This document shows, piece by piece, positions 1 through 23,811 of a stretch of DNA of 64,000 nt. This DNA is from Shigella phage ESh27. The DNA is taken from sequence record ON528737; one strand, given 5' to 3'. The notes below the pieces were generated by a model, which had not been told where the DNA came from, made no database searches, and saw only the letters and a list, made by a program, of their open reading frames with translations. Within the stretch, counting starts at the first letter, position 1. The number at the start of each line of letters is the position of its first letter. Made by a program: the position numbers and the translations under genes.

Positions 1-9
1 GAAACCTCT

Positions 10-204
10 TTGTTAGATGGCTTTTTAGAAAAAAGGTGGTTCAGACATCCGGATTTTGATTGTGCTAATGAAATCTGTGGGTCAACGTGTACATATTGTG
101 AAAGATATTATAAACGTCAATTATCTAAAAATGGGTTAGCAGAAAACTCTATATCTATTATTGATATAACTAACTCTGATGACGCTTTGAGGTACCCGGA
201 ATGA
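10..204 (+). CDS. hypothetical small Cys-rich protein
   Basis: 64 aa ORF upstream of gene 42 with CxxC-type cysteine pairs; no family recognised. Confidence 0.3.
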   Translation: MLDGFLEKRWFRHPDFDCANEICGSTCTYCERYYKRQLSKNGLAENSISIIDITNSDDALRYPE

Positions 205-482: not shown

Positions 483-1199
483 ATGGGAAAACATAACACA
501 ATGAAATATATCAAAGCCGCAGATTTTCAAACCGCATTTAAAGCAGTCAATCGTGAAATTTTAGAAAACCCGGAATTCGTAACTGATTCTCGTATTGGAC
601 GTTGTAATGAAATTGGGTCTATGACCGTAGTTGTTGACACTCCATCATCATTCAAAATGACCGACCCACGTATTAATCGCATCTCTTATGAATATGCCGA
701 AGACTTCTGGAAGTTTATGATTTCTGGTGGTACCAACGCAGAAGAAGCGTTTAAGGCATATCCTAATGTCGCTAAATTTATTTCTAAACCAAAATCAGAT
801 GTTTTGCCGGCGAACTTCAACACTTTCTATGGTCCTCGCATTGCGGCCCAATTACCAGCTCTTCTCAAAGAACTTAAAGAGAAGCCTAACTCTCGAAGAG
901 TTGTGTTCCAAATTCTAGAAAGTTCTGATCAGGCTTTGCTTGATTCAGACGAAACACTTGAATATCCATGTACTGACTCAGTGACTTATTATATTCGTGA
1001 TGGTAAGCTTTATACACACTGTCATATGCGTTCTCAGAACTGTGCTGTTGTTATGCAGTTGGATTTTTATCTCCAAGGAAAATTACTTCATTATATCGCT
1101 AACGAATGTGGTGTAGAAGTTGGTGATTATACTCATACCATGGTAAGTGCCCATGTGTTTGAACGTGATTTTGATTATGTTAAAGGATTCCTTGACTAA
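483..1199 (+). CDS. 42: dCMP hydroxymethylase (gp42-like, thymidylate-synthase fold)
   Basis: 238 aa; TS-family core pattern incl. candidate catalytic Cys in EYPCTD and DGKL/RSQN block; syntenic with T4 gene 42; a separate bona fide td is at 49191. Confidence 0.8.
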   Translation: MGKHNTMKYIKAADFQTAFKAVNREILENPEFVTDSRIGRCNEIGSMTVVVDTPSSFKMTDPRINRISYEYAEDFWKFMISGGTNAEEAFKAYPNVAKFISKPKSDVLPANFNTFYGPRIAAQLPALLKELKEKPNSRRVVFQILESSDQALLDSDETLEYPCTDSVTYYIRDGKLYTHCHMRSQNCAVVMQLDFYLQGKLLHYIANECGVEVGDYTHTMVSAHVFERDFDYVKGFLD

Positions 1200-2098
1200 T
1201 GGCTATTTTCCGCGTACCAATCTTGAGTATGCGGTCTTATGAAACTGGACAGTATGCTATCCTTAAGGATGGCAACTTCCAACTTCATTTGCACCGTGCT
1301 AATCCAGGCGATGTGATTACATATCCACGTAATGCATCTGATATTAAAGAATGCGAACGTCTTTTCCCGGAATTTAAGTTTGTTCCATTATGGTATAAAG
1401 ATAACGCGTATAACACTCGTAAATATTTCTGGTCTGAAAACGAATTTGTTGTTGATTCATTAATTGCTTATTATGATTGTGATTTTCTAATCACAGATAT
1501 CACTGGATATGACGGCGCTTTTGATGTAGAATTCAATTTCAATATCACTGCAGACCCTAATAAACCACGTTTTTATATTGACGAATTCTTAAAAACCGAC
1601 ATGTTGTCGGTTAATCGTTCACTTCAAACTACTGTGTTGAATGAACGTCAAAAAGAAGTGCTGGTTAACGCAGGTGCAGACGATAATAAGATTATCGTAA
1701 CGCAGAAAGTTATACGTCCTTCCATCATGCAGCGTCTTGTAGGTGATTTGGCTCCTATTCATGTAGATGGTATTTTTCATCCATTTCGAATTAGTGATCC
1801 GTGTTATCATTTTGAACAAGTGGTTGAATGTGCAATTCAATTAGGTCAACCGCTTTATATAACCGATCCAAATAATAGCTTCGACAGAAATAAGTATCCT
1901 GAAGAAGCGCTGATTCGAATTTTTAAACCAACTAAAACTGAGTACTACCAAATTCTTAAAGGACGTCCGAAGATTCAATATTTCGAAAATCCTGAAGAAG
2001 TATTCCATCCAGGTCTTGGTGAGTTCATCTACTTTAATGCTTTAATTTCTTCGCCGTATAATATACCTAAATACGAAGATGTCGTAATCGAGGAATAA
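1199..2098 (+). CDS. hypothetical protein in the beta-glucosyltransferase slot (candidate DNA-modification enzyme)
   Basis: 299 aa; ATG overlaps gene 42 stop (TAATG) and stop abuts next ATG, so translationally coupled; family not recognisable by eye. Confidence 0.6.
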   Translation: MAIFRVPILSMRSYETGQYAILKDGNFQLHLHRANPGDVITYPRNASDIKECERLFPEFKFVPLWYKDNAYNTRKYFWSENEFVVDSLIAYYDCDFLITDITGYDGAFDVEFNFNITADPNKPRFYIDEFLKTDMLSVNRSLQTTVLNERQKEVLVNAGADDNKIIVTQKVIRPSIMQRLVGDLAPIHVDGIFHPFRISDPCYHFEQVVECAIQLGQPLYITDPNNSFDRNKYPEEALIRIFKPTKTEYYQILKGRPKIQYFENPEEVFHPGLGEFIYFNALISSPYNIPKYEDVVIEE

Positions 2099-2099
2099 A

Positions 2100-2648
2100 A
2101 TGGCTAAAATTATTTTAGTAGATGGCCCGGATAATGCCGGTAAAACAACTTTCATTAATGACATAATGGAAATTAGTGAAAGATATGTAAAGATTGATTT
2201 CCCTAAACGAACAGTTGATGGACGTTTCGATGTTAAGTCTCGAAATGAAGTTGGTTGTTTCGAAACGATGTTGAATTATTTAGACCCTACTAAGATTTAT
2301 CTGTTAGACCGTGGATATATTAGTAACTGGGTTTATGGACGTATTCGACAAGATGCGGACTCGGTTCTTGACGTTTATGAACAGGATTATGTTCGTCTTT
2401 GTCAAAACCATGATGTGTTCACAATTATTTTAACACGTAACGAAATGACTGAAAGTTTTGAAGACGACCTTATTACTTTGTCTTCATTCGGTTTTAATAC
2501 AGTCATTTCACATTTTGAAGAGTTTGCAATTCATAACAAAATCCAAACGTATCAATTACTTAATCATGATGGTGCTAACAAAGTTATAGGATTTAATGCA
2601 AGCGAACGTAATGATTTGATTACAGAAATTATCAAATGGGCTCGTTAA
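2100..2648 (+). CDS. P-loop nucleotide-kinase-like protein
   Basis: 182 aa; Walker A GPDNAGKTT and a DRG motif resembling the thymidylate/dNMP kinase DRY/DRS motif. Confidence 0.6.
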   Translation: MAKIILVDGPDNAGKTTFINDIMEISERYVKIDFPKRTVDGRFDVKSRNEVGCFETMLNYLDPTKIYLLDRGYISNWVYGRIRQDADSVLDVYEQDYVRLCQNHDVFTIILTRNEMTESFEDDLITLSSFGFNTVISHFEEFAIHNKIQTYQLLNHDGANKVIGFNASERNDLITEIIKWAR

Positions 2649-2747: not shown

Positions 2748-3920
2748 ATGTCTGATTTAAAATCTCGTCTGATTAAAGCTTCTACTTCTAAAATGACTGC
2801 AGACTTGACTAAGTCTAAGCTGTTTAATAATCGTGATGAAGTCCCTACTCGTATTCCGATGTTGAATATTGCACTAGGTGGTGCTCTGAATGCAGGATTG
2901 CAATCAGGCTTGACTATTTTTGCTGCACCTTCTAAACATTTTAAAACATTGTTTGGACTAACTATGGTTGCAGCGTATATGAAGAAATATAAAGATGCAA
3001 TCTGTTTGTTCTATGATTCGGAATTTGGTGCTTCGGAATCTTACTTCCGTTCGATGGGTGTTGATTTGGACCGCGTAGTTCATACACCAATTCAGTCTGT
3101 CGAACAACTTAAAGTCGATATGACTAATCAGCTTGATGCTATTGAACGCGGTGATAAAGTTATTATCTTTATCGATTCAATCGGTAATACTGCATCTAAG
3201 AAAGAAACCGAAGATGCATTGAACGAGAAAGTTGTAGGTGATATGTCTCGTGCTAAGGCACTTAAATCTCTGTTCCGCATTGTGACTCCTTATCTGACTA
3301 TTAAAGATATTCCGTGTGTTGCAATCAACCATACAGCAATGGAAATCGGCGGACTATATCCTAAAGAGATTATGGGTGGTGGTACAGGTATTCTTTACTC
3401 TGCTAACACTGTATTCTTTATCTCTAAACGTCAGGTTAAAGAAGGTACAGAATTGACCGGTTATGACTTCACGTTGAAAGCAGAAAAATCTCGTACGGTT
3501 AAAGAGAAATCTACTTTCCCGATCACGGTTAATTTTGATGGCGGTATTGACCCATTCAGCGGCTTGTTAGAAATGGCAACTGAAATTGGTTTTGTGGTTA
3601 AACCTAAAGCCGGTTGGTATGCTCGTGAATTCCTTGACGAAGAAACAGGTGAAATGATTCGTGAAGAGAAATCATGGCGTGCTAAAGCTACTGATTGCGT
3701 AGAATTCTGGGGACCGTTGTTTAAACACAAACCTTTCCGAGATGCAATTGAAACTAAATATAAACTAGGTGCTATCTCTTCTATTAAAGAAGTTGATGAC
3801 GCTGTTAACGATCTTATTAATTGCAAAGCAACAACTAAAGTTCCGGTTAAAACTTCTGATGCTCCATCTGCAGCAGATATAGAAAACGACCTTGACGAAA
3901 TGGAAGATTTCGATGAATAA
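2748..3920 (+). CDS. uvsX: UvsX RecA-like recombinase
   Basis: 390 aa; N-terminus MSDLKSRLIKASTSK and acidic C-tail; RecA core with P-loop-like APSKHFKT; matches T4 UvsX length. Confidence 0.95.
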   Translation: MSDLKSRLIKASTSKMTADLTKSKLFNNRDEVPTRIPMLNIALGGALNAGLQSGLTIFAAPSKHFKTLFGLTMVAAYMKKYKDAICLFYDSEFGASESYFRSMGVDLDRVVHTPIQSVEQLKVDMTNQLDAIERGDKVIIFIDSIGNTASKKETEDALNEKVVGDMSRAKALKSLFRIVTPYLTIKDIPCVAINHTAMEIGGLYPKEIMGGGTGILYSANTVFFISKRQVKEGTELTGYDFTLKAEKSRTVKEKSTFPITVNFDGGIDPFSGLLEMATEIGFVVKPKAGWYAREFLDEETGEMIREEKSWRAKATDCVEFWGPLFKHKPFRDAIETKYKLGAISSIKEVDDAVNDLINCKATTKVPVKTSDAPSAADIENDLDEMEDFDE

Positions 3921-4263: not shown

Positions 4264-5706
4264 GTGGTAGAAATTATTTTGTCTCATCTCGTATATGACC
4301 AGGCTTATTTTTCTAAGGTCTGGCCTTATATGGATTCTGATTACTTTGAGCGTGGACCGGCAAAAAATGTCTTTAAAATTATAAAGAGCCACGTTAACGA
4401 ATATAATGCAATGCCATCCATCAATGCATTAAAGGTGGCTTTAGATAACAGTTCTTTAACTGAAGCCGAATATAAAGGAACTTCAGACCTAATTGAAAAA
4501 TTGGCTGATACTCCTGAAGACCACGAATGGTTGGTTAAAGAAACTGAGAAATATGTCCAGCAAAAAGCGATGTATAATGCCACGTCCAAAATCATTGAGA
4601 TTCAGACTAATGCCGAACTACCTCCAGAACAACGTAACAAGAAAATGCCTGACGTAGGAGCTATTCCTGATATTATGCGTCAAGCACTTTCAATTTCGTT
4701 TGATAGTTATGTTGGTCACGACTGGATGGAAGACTATGAAGCACGCTGGCTTTCTTATCTAAATAAAGCACGTAAGGTCCCGTTCAAATTAAACATTCTG
4801 AATAAAATCACCAAAGGTGGTGCAGAAACAGGTACACTGAACGTTTTAATGGCTGGTGTTAACGTTGGTAAATCTTTAGGCCTTTGTTCACTTGCCGCAG
4901 ATTATCTTCAAACAGGACATAATGTTCTTTATATTTCCATGGAAATGGCTGAAGAAGTTTGTGCTAAGCGTATAGATGCAAACATGCTTGACGTATCACT
5001 CGATGATATCGATGATGGTAACGTATCTTATGCTGAATATAAAGCCAAGATGGAAAAATGGCGTTCAAAATCCACATTAGGACGTTTAGTAGTCAAACAG
5101 TATCCTACTGGTGGAGCTAATGCTAATACATTCCGTGCATTGCTTAATGAATTGAAACTCAAGAAGAACTTTGTGCCGTCTGTAATTATAGTCGATTACT
5201 TAGGTATTTGTGGGTCTTGTCGTATCAGAGTTTACACCGAAAATAGTTACACATTAGTTAAAGCTATCGCAGAAGAACTTCGTGCATTAGCAGTAGAATC
5301 TGAAACAGTTCTATGGACTGCAGCTCAAGTAGGACGTGCAGCATGGGATGCTTCAGACATGAACATGAGTGATATCGCAGAATCAGCAGGTTTACCAGCA
5401 ACGGCAGATTTCATGTTGGCCGTAATTGAAACTGAAGAACTTGCACAAGCTGAACAACAACTTATCAAACAAATCAAATCACGATACGGTGATAAGAATA
5501 AGTGGAACAAGTTCTTGATGGGTGTACGTAAAGGCAATCAGAAATGGGTTGAGATTGAGCAAGAAGGCATGAACACACCTAACACAGTAAATGAAAACGC
5601 AGGTGCTCAGATGCGTCAGGCAGAGGTGAATCGTACGGAACGCGTAGGTAAAGCCAAAGCAACACGTGCTGACCTAGATAGCTTAGCCAATGAGTTAAAA
5701 TTTTAA
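4264..5706 (+). CDS. 41: gp41 replicative DNA helicase (DnaB-like)
   Basis: 480 aa; Walker A GVNVGKS; N-terminus MVEIILSHL; GTG start; T4 synteny. Confidence 0.9.
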   Translation: MVEIILSHLVYDQAYFSKVWPYMDSDYFERGPAKNVFKIIKSHVNEYNAMPSINALKVALDNSSLTEAEYKGTSDLIEKLADTPEDHEWLVKETEKYVQQKAMYNATSKIIEIQTNAELPPEQRNKKMPDVGAIPDIMRQALSISFDSYVGHDWMEDYEARWLSYLNKARKVPFKLNILNKITKGGAETGTLNVLMAGVNVGKSLGLCSLAADYLQTGHNVLYISMEMAEEVCAKRIDANMLDVSLDDIDDGNVSYAEYKAKMEKWRSKSTLGRLVVKQYPTGGANANTFRALLNELKLKKNFVPSVIIVDYLGICGSCRIRVYTENSYTLVKAIAEELRALAVESETVLWTAAQVGRAAWDASDMNMSDIAESAGLPATADFMLAVIETEELAQAEQQLIKQIKSRYGDKNKWNKFLMGVRKGNQKWVEIEQEGMNTPNTVNENAGAQMRQAEVNRTERVGKAKATRADLDSLANELKF

Positions 5707-5710
5707 TAAA

Positions 5711-5734
5711 AAGGAGACTTCGGTCTCCTTTCGG
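5711..5734 (+). terminator. intrinsic terminator after gene 41
   Basis: GGAGAC-TTCG-GTCTCC hairpin 5713-5728 followed by TTT. Confidence 0.6.
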
Positions 5735-5735
5735 G

Positions 5736-5772
5736 GTTTACATCTTCCTCTAGTCATGATATGATGTACTTA
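5736..5772 (+). promoter_or_regulatory. early (sigma70-type) promoter
   Basis: -35 GTTTAC 5736-5741, 18 bp spacer, -10 TATGAT 5760-5765; directly after gene 41 terminator. Confidence 0.5.
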
Positions 5773-5794
5773 CACCAACCAAGAGGAAAACATT

Positions 5795-6169
5795 ATGAAT
5801 ATGTCTCAAGCAATTTTTACTGCAATCACCGAAAACACAACTGTTGAAGTAGTTTCTCCGCTGGCAACCTACGTTATTCTTGCTCCTAAAACTATTGTAT
5901 CTCGTATGGAAAACATGGGCAAACGTATCGTACAAATCGTTGGAGCCGGAAATCAAAAACTTGATTATCTGCGAACCATCAAAGCTTATGAACATTTCCA
6001 ACTAGAAAAAGGTTCTCCCATCCAGGTAGAACTCGTAAATGGTGATATCGTTCGAGCGATGTTCCATCATTTCTACGCATTGAATGACCCATCTAAAGCT
6101 GTTCGTTTAATTGCATACGACGCAAACCAAAACGAAATCAACGCAGATATATCTAAATTACGTTTTTAA
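5795..6169 (+). CDS. hypothetical protein
   Basis: 124 aa ORF with SD (AAGAGGAAAA) after early promoter. Confidence 0.5.
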   Translation: MNMSQAIFTAITENTTVEVVSPLATYVILAPKTIVSRMENMGKRIVQIVGAGNQKLDYLRTIKAYEHFQLEKGSPIQVELVNGDIVRAMFHHFYALNDPSKAVRLIAYDANQNEINADISKLRF

Positions 6170-6205
6170 GTTTACTTCTCCGGTAGTTGTGTTATTATAG
6201 ACCTA
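6170..6205 (+). promoter_or_regulatory. early promoter
   Basis: -35 GTTTAC 6170-6175, 17 bp, -10 TATTAT 6193-6198; followed by AGACCTATCAA. Confidence 0.5.
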
Positions 6206-6224
6206 TCAACTACTGGAGAACAAA

Positions 6225-6542
6225 ATGAAAACCATCGATTGTAAAGCAGAATTTAAGATTTTTTATCACGGTTCAAGTAGTTCAGCTAACATCGAAAACA
6301 TGCTTTGTCCTCCTGAAGAAACAGGAGTTCTGTCTGAAACTGGACGTAAGAAAAACTTGGATCGTGTATTCTTTACTGAAGATATCGGTTTAGCAAAGAT
6401 TTATGCAGGACGAGCAGCACGCTCTTATGGAGGTGAACCACGTCTCTATCGAGTAATTTCTCCGGTAGACGTAGTTCAAATGAATGATACTAAAGGTGCT
6501 ACAGTTTATCACGCTGAATGGGCATTTTGCGAGGAAATATGA
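6225..6542 (+). CDS. hypothetical protein
   Basis: 105 aa ORF with SD GGAG upstream. Confidence 0.5.
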   Translation: MKTIDCKAEFKIFYHGSSSSANIENMLCPPEETGVLSETGRKKNLDRVFFTEDIGLAKIYAGRAARSYGGEPRLYRVISPVDVVQMNDTKGATVYHAEWAFCEEI

Positions 6543-6730
6543 GCAAATTAACTAAAATTACTTTTATTGGCTGGTTTAAAAGCGGTGAGATGTTCACTAA
6601 AGATATCATGTTATCAGGTGATCGTGAAGAAATCGAGTGGGTTACGGTACAACTTGCTGAAGTGAACAACGCATTAGTTAAAGCATTTGTTAATGACGAG
6701 AAAGTTTTTGAAGCAGACTTCAGAGGTTAA
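6539..6730 (+). CDS. hypothetical protein
   Basis: 63 aa; ATG at 6539 overlaps upstream stop (ATGA). Confidence 0.4.
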   Translation: MSKLTKITFIGWFKSGEMFTKDIMLSGDREEIEWVTVQLAEVNNALVKAFVNDEKVFEADFRG

Positions 6731-6731
6731 T

Positions 6732-6944
6732 ATGTATTCAACTGTGTTTAAACCATCAACATACGAATTTGCATCAACTACACAATGGAAAGCTCTTATT
6801 CTGGAAGGATGGGAACTAATGATGGACTGTGAAGCATCTGAAAAGTTTCCACACGGCAAAGTGGACTTCGTTAAATTTGCTGTACGTCCGACTAAACGTC
6901 AGATTCGTCAAGAAAAACGCAAATTTCGCAAAAGTTTAAAATAG
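6732..6944 (+). CDS. hypothetical protein
   Basis: 70 aa; ATG directly after upstream stop. Confidence 0.4.
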   Translation: MYSTVFKPSTYEFASTTQWKALILEGWELMMDCEASEKFPHGKVDFVKFAVRPTKRQIRQEKRKFRKSLK

Positions 6945-6946
6945 CT

Positions 6947-6985
6947 GTTTACAAGCACCACATACTGTGTTACTATCTTTCTATC
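6947..6985 (+). promoter_or_regulatory. early promoter
   Basis: -35 GTTTAC 6947-6952, 18 bp, -10 TACTAT 6971-6976. Confidence 0.5.
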
Positions 6986-7004
6986 AACTACAGAGGAAAT
7001 TGAA

Positions 7005-7373
7005 ATGAAAAAATTAATCGCTTTAGCAATGGTATTTGGATTAACCGGATGTGGTGCTCATGGCTTTATCCCTAATAATGTCGGCCAATTGATTTATAAC
7101 CCGAATGTTAAACAGTACAACCAACCTAAAGTTGAAGTGGAAGACCCGGTTACTGTAGGTAATCGAATGATTCAAGCTGATGCCCATGCTCAACGTTATC
7201 GTGATTCTGATACTGTAGCATTGACAAAAGAACAACGCGTTAAAGAACATTGCTTACAGGCTACCGAAATCGCATTCATTCGCTATGTTGAAACAACTGG
7301 TAAAGAGCCTACCCAGAAACAAATCGCGAATAACTACGTCCAGTGTATTGAACGTTTAAACAAATTTAATTAA
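7005..7373 (+). CDS. putative lipoprotein
   Basis: 122 aa; signal peptide with lipobox LTGC. Confidence 0.55.
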   Translation: MKKLIALAMVFGLTGCGAHGFIPNNVGQLIYNPNVKQYNQPKVEVEDPVTVGNRMIQADAHAQRYRDSDTVALTKEQRVKEHCLQATEIAFIRYVETTGKEPTQKQIANNYVQCIERLNKFN

Positions 7374-7746: not shown

Positions 7747-8040
7747 ATGAAAAAGTTATCATTGGCAGCAATCTTACTTGCAGTATCGTGTGCACCGGCT
7801 CCAGTTACAGCAGGTTATGATAAAGACCTCTGTGAGTGGTCAATGACTGCAAATCAAGAAGATGTTGAACAACAAATCTTCTCTGATATCATGAACATCA
7901 CTAAACGAGACCGTCCTAATATGGTTAATAAAGTTGTTGAACAACTTAAGTCTGGCGGTATCATGCAGTACAACTATGTTTTGTATTGTGACCCTAATTT
8001 CGATAACAAAGATATCATAACCGAAATCACAGGTGAATAA
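7747..8040 (+). CDS. sp: spackle-like periplasmic protein (Sp)
   Basis: 97 aa with cleavable signal peptide; size and position between 41 and 61 match T4 sp. Confidence 0.55.
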   Translation: MKKLSLAAILLAVSCAPAPVTAGYDKDLCEWSMTANQEDVEQQIFSDIMNITKRDRPNMVNKVVEQLKSGGIMQYNYVLYCDPNFDNKDIITEITGE

Positions 8041-8041
8041 T

Positions 8042-8692
8042 ATGATTTATTATATGCACAAAAACGCGCCATTTAAATATGGTAAATTTCCTAATGCACA
8101 ATGTTATAATATAACGCCGAATGAAAATAATAACGGATACCATATTGGTGTAATTTTTGTAATTGTTAAAGATAACGAAATCGTTGCCTGGGCAGATTTT
8201 AAAGGTACAACGTATGACGTTAATCCGGTTCCGTTCACATATTATAATTTAATGGATTTGGCATACGACTATAATTGGTTTACTCATGATACTCTGGCAC
8301 ATGTTGAAGGCGTAGGATTTGACATCTCTTATTCTAGTTATTCATTATGTCCTATGAGCCGAGCTCACGGTAAAGATGTATCATATCTTTCAATTCGGAA
8401 ACGTGTAAACTTCAAACGTAGTACAGAGTATGTTGGTGGACTCTTTGTTAAAGATAATAAAATAACCCGTATTAGTTATCCTTTAAGTGTAGGTCAAAAA
8501 GATGTTGATGTTGATTTAGACTTAACTGAAAATAACATTAATCACATTGCTTCTGTATATTTTGATATCGATGAAAAAATTGTAGTGTGTGGATACGAAT
8601 TACCACCTGAAGAAAAGGCTGAAGCAATTGAAGTCGAATTAGAAATTTCTGTTGATGACCAAATATTTAATGCATTTATGAATCGAGGTTAA
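8042..8692 (+). CDS. hypothetical protein
   Basis: 216 aa; ATG 8042 immediately after sp stop. Confidence 0.5.
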   Translation: MIYYMHKNAPFKYGKFPNAQCYNITPNENNNGYHIGVIFVIVKDNEIVAWADFKGTTYDVNPVPFTYYNLMDLAYDYNWFTHDTLAHVEGVGFDISYSSYSLCPMSRAHGKDVSYLSIRKRVNFKRSTEYVGGLFVKDNKITRISYPLSVGQKDVDVDLDLTENNINHIASVYFDIDEKIVVCGYELPPEEKAEAIEVELEISVDDQIFNAFMNRG

Positions 8693-10634: not shown

Positions 10635-10723
10635 AATATCTCCTTAGTTACCTTATTATTTATTACGCTTTATAAAATTAATGTTAGAATTAACTCTCTT
10701 ATACTGAATTGAAAGGAAAAATA

Positions 10724-11245
10724 ATGGCACACTTTAACGAATGTTCACAACTTATTTCTGGTGTTGATAAAGCAGAAGAAGCTTATTTTAATGCTCTGAT
10801 TCACGAAGATAAAGACCCACTGCAGGTAATGCTTGATATGCAGAAATCTTTACAGGTTCGTCTGGCGAATGACAAGCCTGAACATAACAAACATCCTGAT
10901 GAATTGGCCACTGCTGGCGATGTTGTTGATTGGCTGCGTAATCAGAAAGATTATATTGATGATGAATTCCGTGAACTGCTGACTTCACTTGGTGGTATGA
11001 GCAATGGTGAAAAAGCTGCCAGCAGTGTATGGAAGCCTTGGAAAGCACAACATGCTGAATTCCGTAATCGTCGTATTGATGAGTTGTCTCCTGAAGACCA
11101 GCTCGAAATTAAATTTGAGATGATTGATATCCTGCACTTTGTTCTGAACATGTTCCATGGCCTTGGACTGACTGCAGAAGAAATCTTTAAACTGTATTAC
11201 CTGAAAAACGCCGAGAACTTTGCTCGTCAGGACCGAGGTTATTAA
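10724..11245 (+). CDS. 56: gp56 dCTPase / dCTP pyrophosphatase (MazG-like)
   Basis: 173 aa from ATG 10724 (track start 10709 is TTG); N-terminus MAHFNEC; T4 synteny. Confidence 0.8.
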   Translation: MAHFNECSQLISGVDKAEEAYFNALIHEDKDPLQVMLDMQKSLQVRLANDKPEHNKHPDELATAGDVVDWLRNQKDYIDDEFRELLTSLGGMSNGEKAASSVWKPWKAQHAEFRNRRIDELSPEDQLEIKFEMIDILHFVLNMFHGLGLTAEEIFKLYYLKNAENFARQDRGY

Positions 11246-17437: not shown

Positions 17438-17932
17438 ATGAATATCAATACTACGGCTACTTACATCCTGAAAGACGAAAAACAAATTAACTGGTATGGT
17501 GCTTCAGTGCGAGCTTACGAAAAGTTTTGTGAAATTTTAGGCACCACTCAAGGTAATAGTTTCACTATTGTTAACTTCATCAAACAAGCTGAAGGCCCTT
17601 GGTTATTCTTAGAAATTAAAAATTCATATGGTACAATTTCCACTACCGCCCTTCCAAGCACAGACTTTGAACTGTTGATTGAAGAAGTAGAACCCGTTAA
17701 AGACATCTGTATTGATATGGATATCGCTTGTATGTACGGTACTCTGATTAAGCCTATTGAGCCTACTGATTTGCTGTGTAAATATGTTTCAATTCGACGC
17801 CCGTTCGCAGGTCCAGTAAATGGATGGGTAACTGACCAGTGGATTGAAGACGGTGTTGAACTTCTGAACGTTGTTCATGCAGGTGATTTTAGTGTAGTTC
17901 CACGTAGTGCTGTGGTTAATATCCTTAATTAA
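17438..17932 (+). CDS. hypothetical protein, tandem paralog 1
   Basis: 164 aa; C-terminal NGWVTDQWIEDGVELLNVVHAGDFSVV block shared with the next two ORFs. Confidence 0.5.
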   Translation: MNINTTATYILKDEKQINWYGASVRAYEKFCEILGTTQGNSFTIVNFIKQAEGPWLFLEIKNSYGTISTTALPSTDFELLIEEVEPVKDICIDMDIACMYGTLIKPIEPTDLLCKYVSIRRPFAGPVNGWVTDQWIEDGVELLNVVHAGDFSVVPRSAVVNILN

Positions 17933-22710: not shown

Positions 22711-23811
22711 ATGAAAGTTATGTTTATCCCATCTCGCGCAGTCCCGTTTAACCCAGAACGTGTACAAGGTGGTCTTGAAGCAGTACATTTAAATGTGTTG
22801 AAATATCTTGTGTCCATCGGTGCTGATATTGATTATATCGGCTTTGATAATGACACGTTTGGTGACTGGAAAGTTACACACCATCCTGTTGGTCATCTGA
22901 CTAAATTCAGTCTAGGTATGAGTTATACTATGGCTCGTAAGATTGTTGAACTAGCCGGCATTAATGAGTACGATTTCGTTGTTACAATGGAACCGACCAA
23001 ACTAACCGTTCAGGCAATTAAAGACGCAGGTCTCTCTAAAGTTCATAAGAATTTTATGGCAACACCATTTGAACCGGTATCTCGTGGCATTGTTCAAATT
23101 TGGGACCAGACTATTCAAATTCATAAGAATGGTGGTAAGAGTTATGCTCCTACTAAAGCCTTCCGTGAATTTGAACGCAAATATTGTTATATGACTTCAG
23201 GACTGACTGACAAAATTGATTATGATTATTGGCGAGCAAATCCGTTGTTTGAAGCCGAAGATTATCCGGTTATTTGTTTGACTGAAAAACCGGAAGTTCT
23301 CCCAGCAACTGATTTGATTATTAGTGCTCAACGTTATGACACTAAGATGCGTCGTACTGATGTTGCTCTTGAAGCGATTAAAGCATTAGGCGAAAATGGT
23401 ATTGGTTATTGTCCAAGCAAATGGGCACCACCAGCTAAGTATCCTGTTATTATTGATGCTCCACACAGTGAAATCATGGAACGTCTTAAAACAGCTAAAG
23501 CACTTATTAATACGTGTCCTGACACGGGTACGGTAGAGAATAGTTCTATTGAAGCCATCTCTAAAGGTGTCCCTGTAATTCAGTTAGTTTTTAAGGATTA
23601 TCCGCATGCGACATTCGAATATGACCCAGATACTGTGCGTGTAGAAATTGATTCCTCTACTCCTAAGAAAGAAGTAGTTGCGCTTTACACAAAAGCTGTA
23701 TTAGAATTCACTGACACGTACGAAGCTCGAGTTAAACGTGCTGAAGCAGTATGGAAGAAGTATAACCGAGATGCAGTTGTTGCAATGTGGGATAAAATCT
23801 TCACAGCGTAA
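22711..23811 (+). CDS. putative GT-B fold glycosyltransferase (candidate DNA sugar transferase)
   Basis: 366 aa; C-terminal TGTVENSSIEAISKGVPVI resembles the GT1/GT4 E-x7-E donor-binding region; sits between 39 and rIIA. Confidence 0.55.
   Translation: MKVMFIPSRAVPFNPERVQGGLEAVHLNVLKYLVSIGADIDYIGFDNDTFGDWKVTHHPVGHLTKFSLGMSYTMARKIVELAGINEYDFVVTMEPTKLTVQAIKDAGLSKVHKNFMATPFEPVSRGIVQIWDQTIQIHKNGGKSYAPTKAFREFERKYCYMTSGLTDKIDYDYWRANPLFEAEDYPVICLTEKPEVLPATDLIISAQRYDTKMRRTDVALEAIKALGENGIGYCPSKWAPPAKYPVIIDAPHSEIMERLKTAKALINTCPDTGTVENSSIEAISKGVPVIQLVFKDYPHATFEYDPDTVRVEIDSSTPKKEVVALYTKAVLEFTDTYEARVKRAEAVWKKYNRDAVVAMWDKIFTA

Follow-up and report, generated by a model that had tools for sequence, protein, structure and literature searches.

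An RB69-like three-gene cluster as the probable core of an arabinosyl-5-hydroxycytosine pathway

Background

Which DNA modification could be built by three tightly packed genes that occupy the position held in T4 by the beta-glucosyltransferase gene? An earlier note on this DNA had raised the question for positions 483–2648 of the 64-kb stretch analysed here (the window). Its placement of the genes in the beta-gt slot is right, since the T4 gene order is 42, b-gt, segA, uvsX. The note had also proposed a module for a non-canonical hydroxymethyl-pyrimidine modification, of which the non-canonical cytosine hypermodification stands, but with 5-hydroxycytosine as the base instead of a hydroxymethyl pyrimidine. 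The window is from a Mosigvirus (RB69-like) phage and has 98–99% identity to many sequenced phages, with the region itself showing 98.7% nucleotide identity to Mosigvirus genomes and being covered by 151 records. We conclude, with a probability of roughly 0.88, that the window is from such a phage and that the three genes form the core of an arabinosyl-5-hydroxycytosine pathway.

Mono- and di-arabinosyl-5-hydroxy-dC have been reported in Mosigvirus virion DNA, and the pathway was reportedly published by Mahler in 2025 and He in 2026. It was also described by Lee (2026), and because it is in print (2025–2026), the three-gene finding is already known. What the present analysis adds is the conservation of the trio, the fusions of its kinase and one phage having the kinase alone. 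As the window represents one more Mosigvirus with this pathway, its value lies in the corrected annotation, with 483–1199 being a 5-hydroxy-dCMP synthase instead of gene 42 or thymidylate synthase, 1199–2098 a predicted arabinosyltransferase instead of a hypothetical protein, and 2100–2648 a nucleotide kinase belonging to the modification cluster instead of a thymidylate kinase.

Gene arrangement and neighbourhood

The three ORFs are located on the + strand and encode proteins of 238 aa (483–1199), 299 aa (1199–2098) and 182 aa (2100–2648). Judged from their sequences they are real genes, with PHROG matches of E = 7e-47, 7e-156 and 2e-45, respectively, and with 136 database homologues for the 299-aa and 27 for the 182-aa protein. 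The overlapping and abutting start and stop codons described in the earlier note were confirmed: the ATG of the second gene overlaps the TAA before it by a single base (TAATG), and the third follows after a 1-nt gap (TAAAATG), with GAGGA located 6 nt upstream. Translational coupling of the three genes is predicted from the sequence. Such packing does not stand out in this genome, since overlapping or abutting stop and start codons are common in the window (for example at 17932, 49191/49194, 55497 and 60436).

The trio is preceded by an intergenic leader (441–482, + strand), where reading by eye revealed AGCTTTA at 440–446 followed 11 nt later by TATAAT at 458–463, a candidate T4-type middle promoter, and a GAGG ribosome binding site is located 6 nt before the ATG of 483–1199. 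A σ70 scan of the + strand of this leader gave no match. Over the window, the σ70 and terminator scans were uninformative, with fewer sites than in shuffled controls. No tRNA genes were found in the 64-kb window.

Further upstream, a 79-aa ORF at the position of RB69 gp49 (201–440, + strand; phrog_8601, E = 3e-51, function unknown) overlaps the preceding stop codon (ATGA). This stop codon ends a U32-peptidase-like gene, of which the last 67 codons are present (1–204, + strand), differing by one substitution from the C-terminal end of a 386-aa 'peptidase' in phage NRG-P0074. Its RB69 counterpart, gp50, is counted in the arabinose/5hoC cluster (PMC13326640), and this cluster, to which the U32-peptidase-like gene belongs, extends leftward beyond the window. 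A relative with 98.3% identity has as its upstream neighbours an arabinose-5-P isomerase, a 561-aa protein annotated as 'dCMP deaminase' at the position of the RB69 NTP-transferase/kinase, a 124-aa protein annotated as 'phosphoheptose isomerase' at the position of the RB69 HAD phosphatase, and the U32-like protein; the UDP-arabinose genes are outside the window. Within it, a gp56-like dCTPase/dUTPase is encoded at 10709–11245 (+ strand; PF08761 dUTPase_2, E = 3e-6), the counterpart of RB69 gp28, which is listed as dCTPase (PMC13326640). This gene supports the pathway, since dCTP is removed and dCMP supplied.

The 238-aa enzyme as a 5-hydroxy-dCMP synthase

The protein encoded at 483–1199, the counterpart of RB69 gp48, has the thymidylate synthase (TS) fold recognised in the earlier note (PF00303, E = 2.3e-15, 56.9 bits versus a cut-off of 24.3). 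The assignment in that note to gene 42, as a dCMP hydroxymethylase, is contradicted by the Asn at the position of ThyA Asp169 (D169N) and by 98% identity over 238 aa to a crystallised enzyme (PDB 9iqc/9ir2/9iqu). Alignment with E. coli ThyA, for which the reference sequence used in residue numbering was checked against PDB 1aob, showed the presence of C146, L143E, D169N and N177D (the latter denoting dCMP preference), and the loss of W80 and W83, with Ala in the W80 column. The diagnostic column 169 reads RSQN in the window, RSCD in ThyA and RSND in T4 gp42, with the latter having 24.8% identity to the window protein. Asn at this position was proposed as the diagnostic residue of 5-hydroxy-dCMP (5hodCMP) synthases, and experiments with RB69 gp48 and other D169N homologues showed production of 5-hydroxy-dCMP that depends on flavin and O2 (PMC13326640). 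D169N and the identity to PDB 9iqc place the 238-aa enzyme in this family, probably as a flavin/O2-dependent 5-hydroxy-dCMP synthase of the D169N clade, which means that the modification would be built on 5-hydroxycytosine and not on a hydroxymethyl pyrimidine.

Two predicted arabinosyltransferases

Sequence searches of Pfam and PDB gave no match for the 299-aa protein (1199–2098), and only structure prediction, a check proposed in the earlier note, resolved it, with a confident model of a small GT-B/GT4-like glycosyltransferase having two Rossmann domains. The protein lacks BLASTP similarity to T4 beta-GT, in agreement with the earlier view that an ordinary beta-glucosyltransferase is absent from this slot. 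It is a member of phrog_3891 and adjoins a D169N synthase in about 50 loci. Here as in the literature, it is predicted to be arabinosyltransferase 1, which would use UDP-Araf to attach the base-proximal alpha-arabinofuranose (Araf) to 5-hydroxycytosine at its 5-OH. A Thanatos paper reported that a 300-aa protein at the equivalent position has UDP-xylose pyrophosphorylase activity, and Lee et al. found single DLP3 transferases to be inactive on 5hoC DNA, without distinguishing whether the first sugar is added on the mononucleotide or on DNA.

The gene for a second glycosyltransferase, of 366 aa, is flanked by those for the topoisomerase large subunit and rIIA (22711–23811, + strand; phrog_8302). 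This transferase corresponds to RB69 gp3/ORF003c and matches the 'phage HY126 glycosyltransferase' (PDB 9iqz/9ir0) at E = 1.6e-248. The protein shows no similarity in sequence to the 299-aa protein, and is predicted to add the second (beta) arabinose.

The 182-aa nucleotide kinase

The thymidylate-kinase-like Walker A and DRG motifs described in the earlier note were found in the 182-aa protein (2100–2648) as GPDNAGKT (residues 9–16) and D70-R71-G72, both invariant in its family, and structure prediction and comparison gave thymidylate kinases as the closest fold. The P-loop GxDxxGK(T/S), FPxR, DR(Y/G) and lid Arg motifs are all present; in thymidylate kinase structures, the P-loop Asp, FPxR and DR bind the 3′-OH and 5′-phosphate of the deoxynucleoside monophosphate, and all three are lacking in the DNA kinase M6 gp54. 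The protein has the thymidylate kinase fold, but by the curated model it is not a member of PF02223, with no match at E ≤ 1, and the family profile reached only E = 0.006 against the PDB. Matches to PDB sequences of RecA and thioredoxin were discarded as P-loop noise, and there was neither sequence nor closest-fold similarity to the T4 gp1 dNMP kinase.

The RB69 counterpart, gp45, was published as "nucleotide kinase" only. Our best guess is that the 182-aa protein acts as a monophosphate kinase on C5-modified dCMP, a substrate that the context would favour over dTMP, which is unlikely to be the main substrate because the gene is located inside a cytosine-modification cluster. For 5hodCMP itself the enzyme seems redundant, since the RB69 gp1-type kinase already makes the diphosphate (PMC13326640).

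Proposed pathway

In the pathway that we propose, dCMP would be hydroxylated at C5 by the 238-aa TS homologue using flavin and O2, as was shown for close homologues, and the resulting 5-hydroxy-dCMP would be a substrate of the phage gp1-type dNMP kinase, of the 182-aa kinase or of both. Further phosphorylation would then give the modified triphosphate, which the phage polymerase would insert into DNA, with dCTP meanwhile being destroyed by the gp56-like dCTPase. The first alpha-arabinofuranose is predicted to be transferred to the 5-OH by the 299-aa GT-B enzyme, using UDP-arabinofuranose supplied by genes predicted just left of the window, and the second arabinose by the 366-aa transferase, and the resulting DNA would resist restriction enzymes and CRISPR nucleases. 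The pathway matters because arabinosylated 5-hydroxycytosine protects phage DNA against these enzymes and leaves the phage exposed to type IV systems, which bears on phage therapy and phage engineering.

Conservation of the trio and alternative readings

Our survey covered 60 viral loci, identified by means of the transferase, and a 355-kb JGI contig; one of the loci (L004) is a near-copy of the window. About 50 viral loci retain the synthase-transferase-kinase trio. The gene orders were synthase-GT-kinase (37 loci), kinase-synthase-GT (11) and kinase-GT (4), and junctions of ≤5 nt were found in 41/50 and 37/39 cases. Nearly all loci had transferase and kinase as a pair, even where identity was only 24–28%, including loci without an adjacent synthase (L051, L053, L055 and L056), and in two independent contigs they are fused as a single 606-aa protein. 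When examined as candidate divergent synthases, the ORFs upstream of the fusion in L061 proved not to be such enzymes.

The pairing and fusion are consistent with a pathway in which the 299-aa transferase arabinosylates free 5-hydroxy-dCMP, the 182-aa protein serves as dedicated arabinosyl-5-hydroxy-dCMP kinase, the phage polymerase incorporates the sugar-bearing dCTP analogue, and only later sugars are added on DNA. A second substrate is suggested by the presence of a second kinase in these phages, as the gp1-type dNMP kinase already handles 5hodCMP, and the 182-aa kinase retains its dNMP-binding motifs. The inactivity on 5hoC DNA, from which Lee et al. left the question open, and the acidity of the 299-aa transferase (pI 5.05, net charge −12) point in the same direction, although the latter is a weak sign against DNA binding, since T4 alpha-GT is acidic too (pI 6.1). 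Such a route would explain why transferase and kinase are inseparable or fused across distant phages and why the first transferase has never been seen working on DNA, and it would be the first known case of DNA glycosylation before replication. Against this route, all known phage DNA glycosylation is post-replicative. Furthermore, a kinase with 54% identity is present in Morganella phage MP1, with neither the transferase nor a D169N synthase in 150 of its 163 kb; this phage has a TS homologue with N177D. In addition, fusion of neighbouring genes in one pathway is no proof of consecutive steps. Expression of synthase and dNMP kinase alone suffices for 5hodC to enter DNA (PMC13326640), so that a DNA-level transferase would still be needed for full modification. 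We consider glycosylation before replication unlikely.

A different role for the kinase is hinted at by about ten representative proteins in which it is fused to a DNA-glycosylase-like HhH-GPD domain, adjoining D169N synthases, which hints at a link with DNA and parallels phage M6, where PF18748 is paired with a helical domain (PF18723). The 182-aa family also has a remote similarity to M6 gp54 (hhalign 81.6%, E = 1e-5), restricted to 81 columns in the N-terminal half. The enzyme might thus act on DNA like the 5-hmdU DNA kinases, adding phosphate to a hydroxyl group on the modified base or on the attached sugar with the help of a base-flipping partner, and a sugar phosphate would probably escape phosphatase-based nucleoside analyses. 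This seems very improbable, as the 182-aa protein does not match PF18748 (5-HMUDK), which M6 gp54 matches at E = 8e-18, its fold is nearest to thymidylate kinases, and the Asp and the Arg of the DR motif that bind the 3′-OH and 5′-phosphate of a mononucleotide are invariant in its family and absent from M6 gp54. In addition, the window protein has no helical domain, and a phosphate on the phenol-like 5-OH would, on chemical reasoning, provide no useful leaving group for O-glycosylation. The analogy with hypermodification P-loop kinases, drawn in the earlier note, is not borne out at the level of the 5-HMUDK family, and 5-HMUDK-type activation of a hydroxymethyl group was likewise rejected.

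The original idea of a T4-type dCMP hydroxymethylase making hmdCMP, on which the two downstream proteins would build a new hydroxymethyl-pyrimidine modification, draws on the TS fold, on synteny with T4 gene 42 and beta-gt and on the arabinosyl-hmC proposed in a 2018 RB69 paper, but is hardly credible given D169N, the missing ThyA W80/W83-aligned tryptophans, the near-identity to a hydroxylase-family enzyme and low identity to gp42, and is already contradicted by the published chemistry of RB69 and Mosigvirus NP, where 18O2 labelling, NMR and MS revealed a direct C5-O-sugar link. Ordinary glucosyl-hmC was also rejected.

Comparison with known systems

The closest counterparts of the 238-aa protein are RB69 gp48, DLP3 gp80 and the HY126 enzyme (PDB 9iqc), with which it shares length, the residues C146, E143, N169 and D177, and a location upstream of transferase and kinase. 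Only five conservative substitutions distinguish it from PDB 9iqc, with no functional difference visible in the sequence. The protein shares with T4 gp42 the TS fold, dCMP-type N177D, acidic residue 143, catalytic Cys and a syntenic location upstream of uvsX, but gp42 has Asp169 and a W80 equivalent, whereas the window protein has Asn169 and has lost the W80 equivalent, and its family uses flavin and O2 to yield 5-OH and not 5-CH2OH.

The 299-aa protein corresponds to RB69 gp46:47, DLP3 gp79 and Thanatos TH1_063 (phrog_3891), predicted as DNA arabinosyltransferase 1. Its gene is intact in the window and split in the RB69 reference record, where the split is a sequencing error (PMC13326640). 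It is 50–100 residues shorter than the T4 beta- and alpha-glucosyltransferases and structurally closer to bacterial GT4 enzymes, is acidic where T4 beta-GT is basic, and differs in its predicted sugar (arabinofuranose) and acceptor (the ring 5-OH).

Finally, the 182-aa kinase, counterpart of RB69 gp45 and DLP3 gp78, is shorter than the thymidylate kinases (PF02223; vaccinia 2v54, S. tokodaii 2plr) and has 8–19% identity to them. It resembles 5-HMUDK (PF18748; M6 gp54) in being a small P-loop kinase encoded within a pyrimidine-hypermodification cluster, and in having some relatives fused to a DNA-glycosylase-like helical domain.

Gene layout and surroundings

Reading of the open reading frames confirmed three packed genes at 483–2648, all on the plus strand: a 238 aa ORF (gene 1, 483–1199), a 299 aa ORF (1199–2098), whose ATG overlaps the TAA before it by one base (TAATG), and a 182 aa ORF (2100–2648), starting one base past the preceding TAA and with a GAGGA sequence 6 nt upstream. 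Stop/start junctions this tight are common throughout the window, and such packing is a typical trait of T4-like genomes, not a peculiarity of the modification module. The trio is followed by uvsX (2748–3920), gene 40 and the gene 41 helicase, and since the T4 order is 42, b-gt, segA, uvsX, the earlier note had correctly placed these genes in the "beta-gt slot".

The region is covered by approximately 150 records with 95–99% identity (98.7% for Escherichia phage phiC120), which represent Mosigvirus (the RB69 group). To the left of the window, a relative with 98.3% identity carries the genes for DNA polymerase, arabinose-5-phosphate isomerase and a 561 aa protein, followed towards the window by a homing endonuclease, a 124 aa protein and a U32 "peptidase"-like protein. 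The last 67 codons of the U32-like gene (L001:4645–5805, L-numbers denoting the viral loci compared) match window positions 1–204, and encode a Cys-rich C-terminus (CANEICGSTCTYC). The U32-like protein adjoins arabinose genes in distant loci too (L061:9925–11013), and is labelled a putative "sugar or heterocycle reductase" in the literature. A 79 aa ORF of unknown function (phrog_8601, 201–440) lies between this gene and gene 1, overlapping the upstream stop codon; it is kept across Mosigvirus and may be a member of the modification cluster. Separately, a 219 aa protein (8033–8692) matched the AdfA (anti-DarT factor A) Pfam family (E = 1e-119), and is an anti-defence gene of the early region.

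A predicted dCMP 5-hydroxylase and arabinosyltransferase

Gene 1 fits the thymidylate synthase (TS) model in a Pfam profile search, but its identity is just 24.8% to T4 gp42, against 98% (five substitutions) to the 238 aa chain of PDB entries 9iqc, 9ir2 and 9iqu. These entries share a deposition series with 9iqz ("phage HY126 glycosyltransferase"), and we infer that they represent the HY126 enzyme for which Lee et al. cite a flavin-bound structure. Alignment with E. coli ThyA (sequence verified against 1aob) and T4 gp42 showed that Cys146 is kept, that L143E, N177D and D169N are present (ThyA numbering; RSQN at the position-169 motif versus RSND in T4 gp42), and that ThyA tryptophans 80 and 83 are absent. 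D169N was proposed as the diagnostic residue by Lee et al. (NAR 2026, PMC13326640), who showed 18O2 incorporation and a bound flavin; RB69 gp48 and DLP3 gp80, together with nine further homologues carrying D169N, make 5-hydroxy-dC in vivo (PMC13326640). The D169N residue, the missing tryptophans and the 9iqc match rule out the dCMP hydroxymethylase (gene 42) assignment of the earlier note, and gene 1 is, judged by its residues, a predicted dCMP 5-hydroxylase.

The 299 aa protein matched no sequence in Pfam or the PDB, and resembles in sequence neither T4 beta-GT nor the window's second transferase (22711–23811), which is the counterpart of RB69 gp3 and matched PDB 9iqz (E = 1e-248). The 299 aa protein belongs to phrog_3891 (at least 136 phage proteins), a predicted arabinosyltransferase family, in agreement with the published assignment of RB69 gp46:47 as arabinosyltransferase 1 from structure and synteny (PMC13326640).

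Virion DNA of RB69 and Mosigvirus NP contains 5-hydroxy-dC that carries one or two arabinoses through a direct ether link, and this supersedes the arabinosyl-hmC proposed for RB69 in 2018. The suspected non-canonical modification module is real, but its chemistry is that of 5-hydroxycytosine and arabinose, not of a hydroxymethyl pyrimidine. The pathway was published in 2025–2026.

Conservation of the three genes

A search of viral contigs by means of the transferase alignment identified 60 loci, whose ORFs were classed by HMM searches; for gene order, L004 (a near-copy of the window) was left out and a 355 kb JGI contig, with the same gene set plus arabinose genes, was added. The order was synthase-transferase-kinase in 37 loci, kinase-synthase-transferase in 11 and kinase-transferase in four, with junctions of ≤5 nt in 41/50 synthase-transferase and 37/39 transferase-kinase pairs. 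Because many loci are close relatives these are not independent events, but the loci do cover an identity range of 24–99%. The E143/C146/N169/D177 signature was present in 53/57 TS homologues of these loci. Outliers beside a transferase were L052:3615–4307, with Ser at 169, and L060:5028–5879, with ThyA-like L143/D169/N177. Distant synthase-transferase-kinase trios in L057–L059 and L063 (149–156 kb where known), which may be RL38J1-like phages, have the kinase P-loop EGLDRSGKD(S/T), with Asp replacing the usual Ser/Thr after Lys; L057–L059 have a separate gp1-like kinase (GYKNSGKT) upstream. In L050, a 551 aa protein (5452–7107) carries, ahead of its transferase domain, an N-terminal segment that resembles a HAD phosphatase (DFDG motif, by eye); it adjoins a D169N synthase, and no kinase was found within 6 kb.

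Role of the kinase

The thymidylate-kinase-like character noted earlier for the 182 aa protein was borne out, as its P-loop and FPxR motifs line up with vaccinia TMPK in the family profile, and D11, K15, T16, F34-P35-K36, D70-R71 and R113 are invariant in the family. The P-loop Asp and the two Arg motifs are what binds the 3′-OH and 5′-phosphate of the deoxynucleoside monophosphate in TMPK structures, and their retention here points to a mononucleotide substrate.

The counterparts of the 182 aa protein, RB69 gp45 and DLP3 gp78, are listed only as "nucleotide kinase", and 5hodCMP is already phosphorylated by the RB69 gp1-type kinase (PMC13326640). The gp1-type dNMP kinase coexists with the 182 aa type in Straboviridae and more distant loci, and the 182 aa type is a constant pathway partner which is probably not redundant with it. 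We prefer an additional kinase dedicated to C5-modified dCMP, which fits the dNMP-binding motifs and Morganella phage vB_MmoM_MP1 (NC_031020; L082:20500–21030, L084:42020–42859), where a 54%-identical kinase is flanked by DNA polymerase and uvsX. The 150/163 kb of MP1 scanned contained neither a transferase nor a D169N synthase; the sole TS homologue there has L143, D169, N177D and H147V, a combination that under published rules would indicate a dCMP methylase and not a thymidylate synthase.

Phosphorylation of arabinosyl-5hodCMP, with the sugar already attached to the nucleotide, seems unlikely, even though it would fit the pairing and fusion of the kinase with the transferase and the fact that transferase activity on DNA was looked for and not seen. 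The two are also fused into a single 606 aa protein in two contigs (L061:5164–6984, 191 kb; L062:2594–4411, 128 kb, IMG/VR), with the kinase at residues 414–599 (38% identity to a stand-alone L060 kinase); SIS, NTP-transferase and U32 genes lie downstream, and there is no synthase within 6 kb.

A full-library profile search gave approximately ten representatives with a C-terminal HhH-GPD (DNA-glycosylase-like) domain on the kinase (P0179, P0180, P0185, P0187 and about six more; loci L085, L087 and L089), beside D169N-type synthases, flavin reductase and SIS isomerase, and in L087 beside a distant transferase homologue and PolA. Such fusions could suggest action on DNA, which we consider very improbable, as neither the dNMP-binding motifs nor the chemistry fit.

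The fusions recall 5-hmdU DNA kinase, which is paired with a helical partner. The analogy drawn earlier between the 182 aa protein and base-hypermodification P-loop kinases did not extend to membership of the 5-hmdU DNA kinase family: the 182 aa protein had no PF18748 (5-hmdU DNA kinase) match in the Pfam search, whereas M6 gp54 matched at 8e-18, and profile comparison of the two gave 81.6%, confined to the N-terminal half, with the Asp and DR motifs of the 182 aa kinase family absent from M6 gp54.
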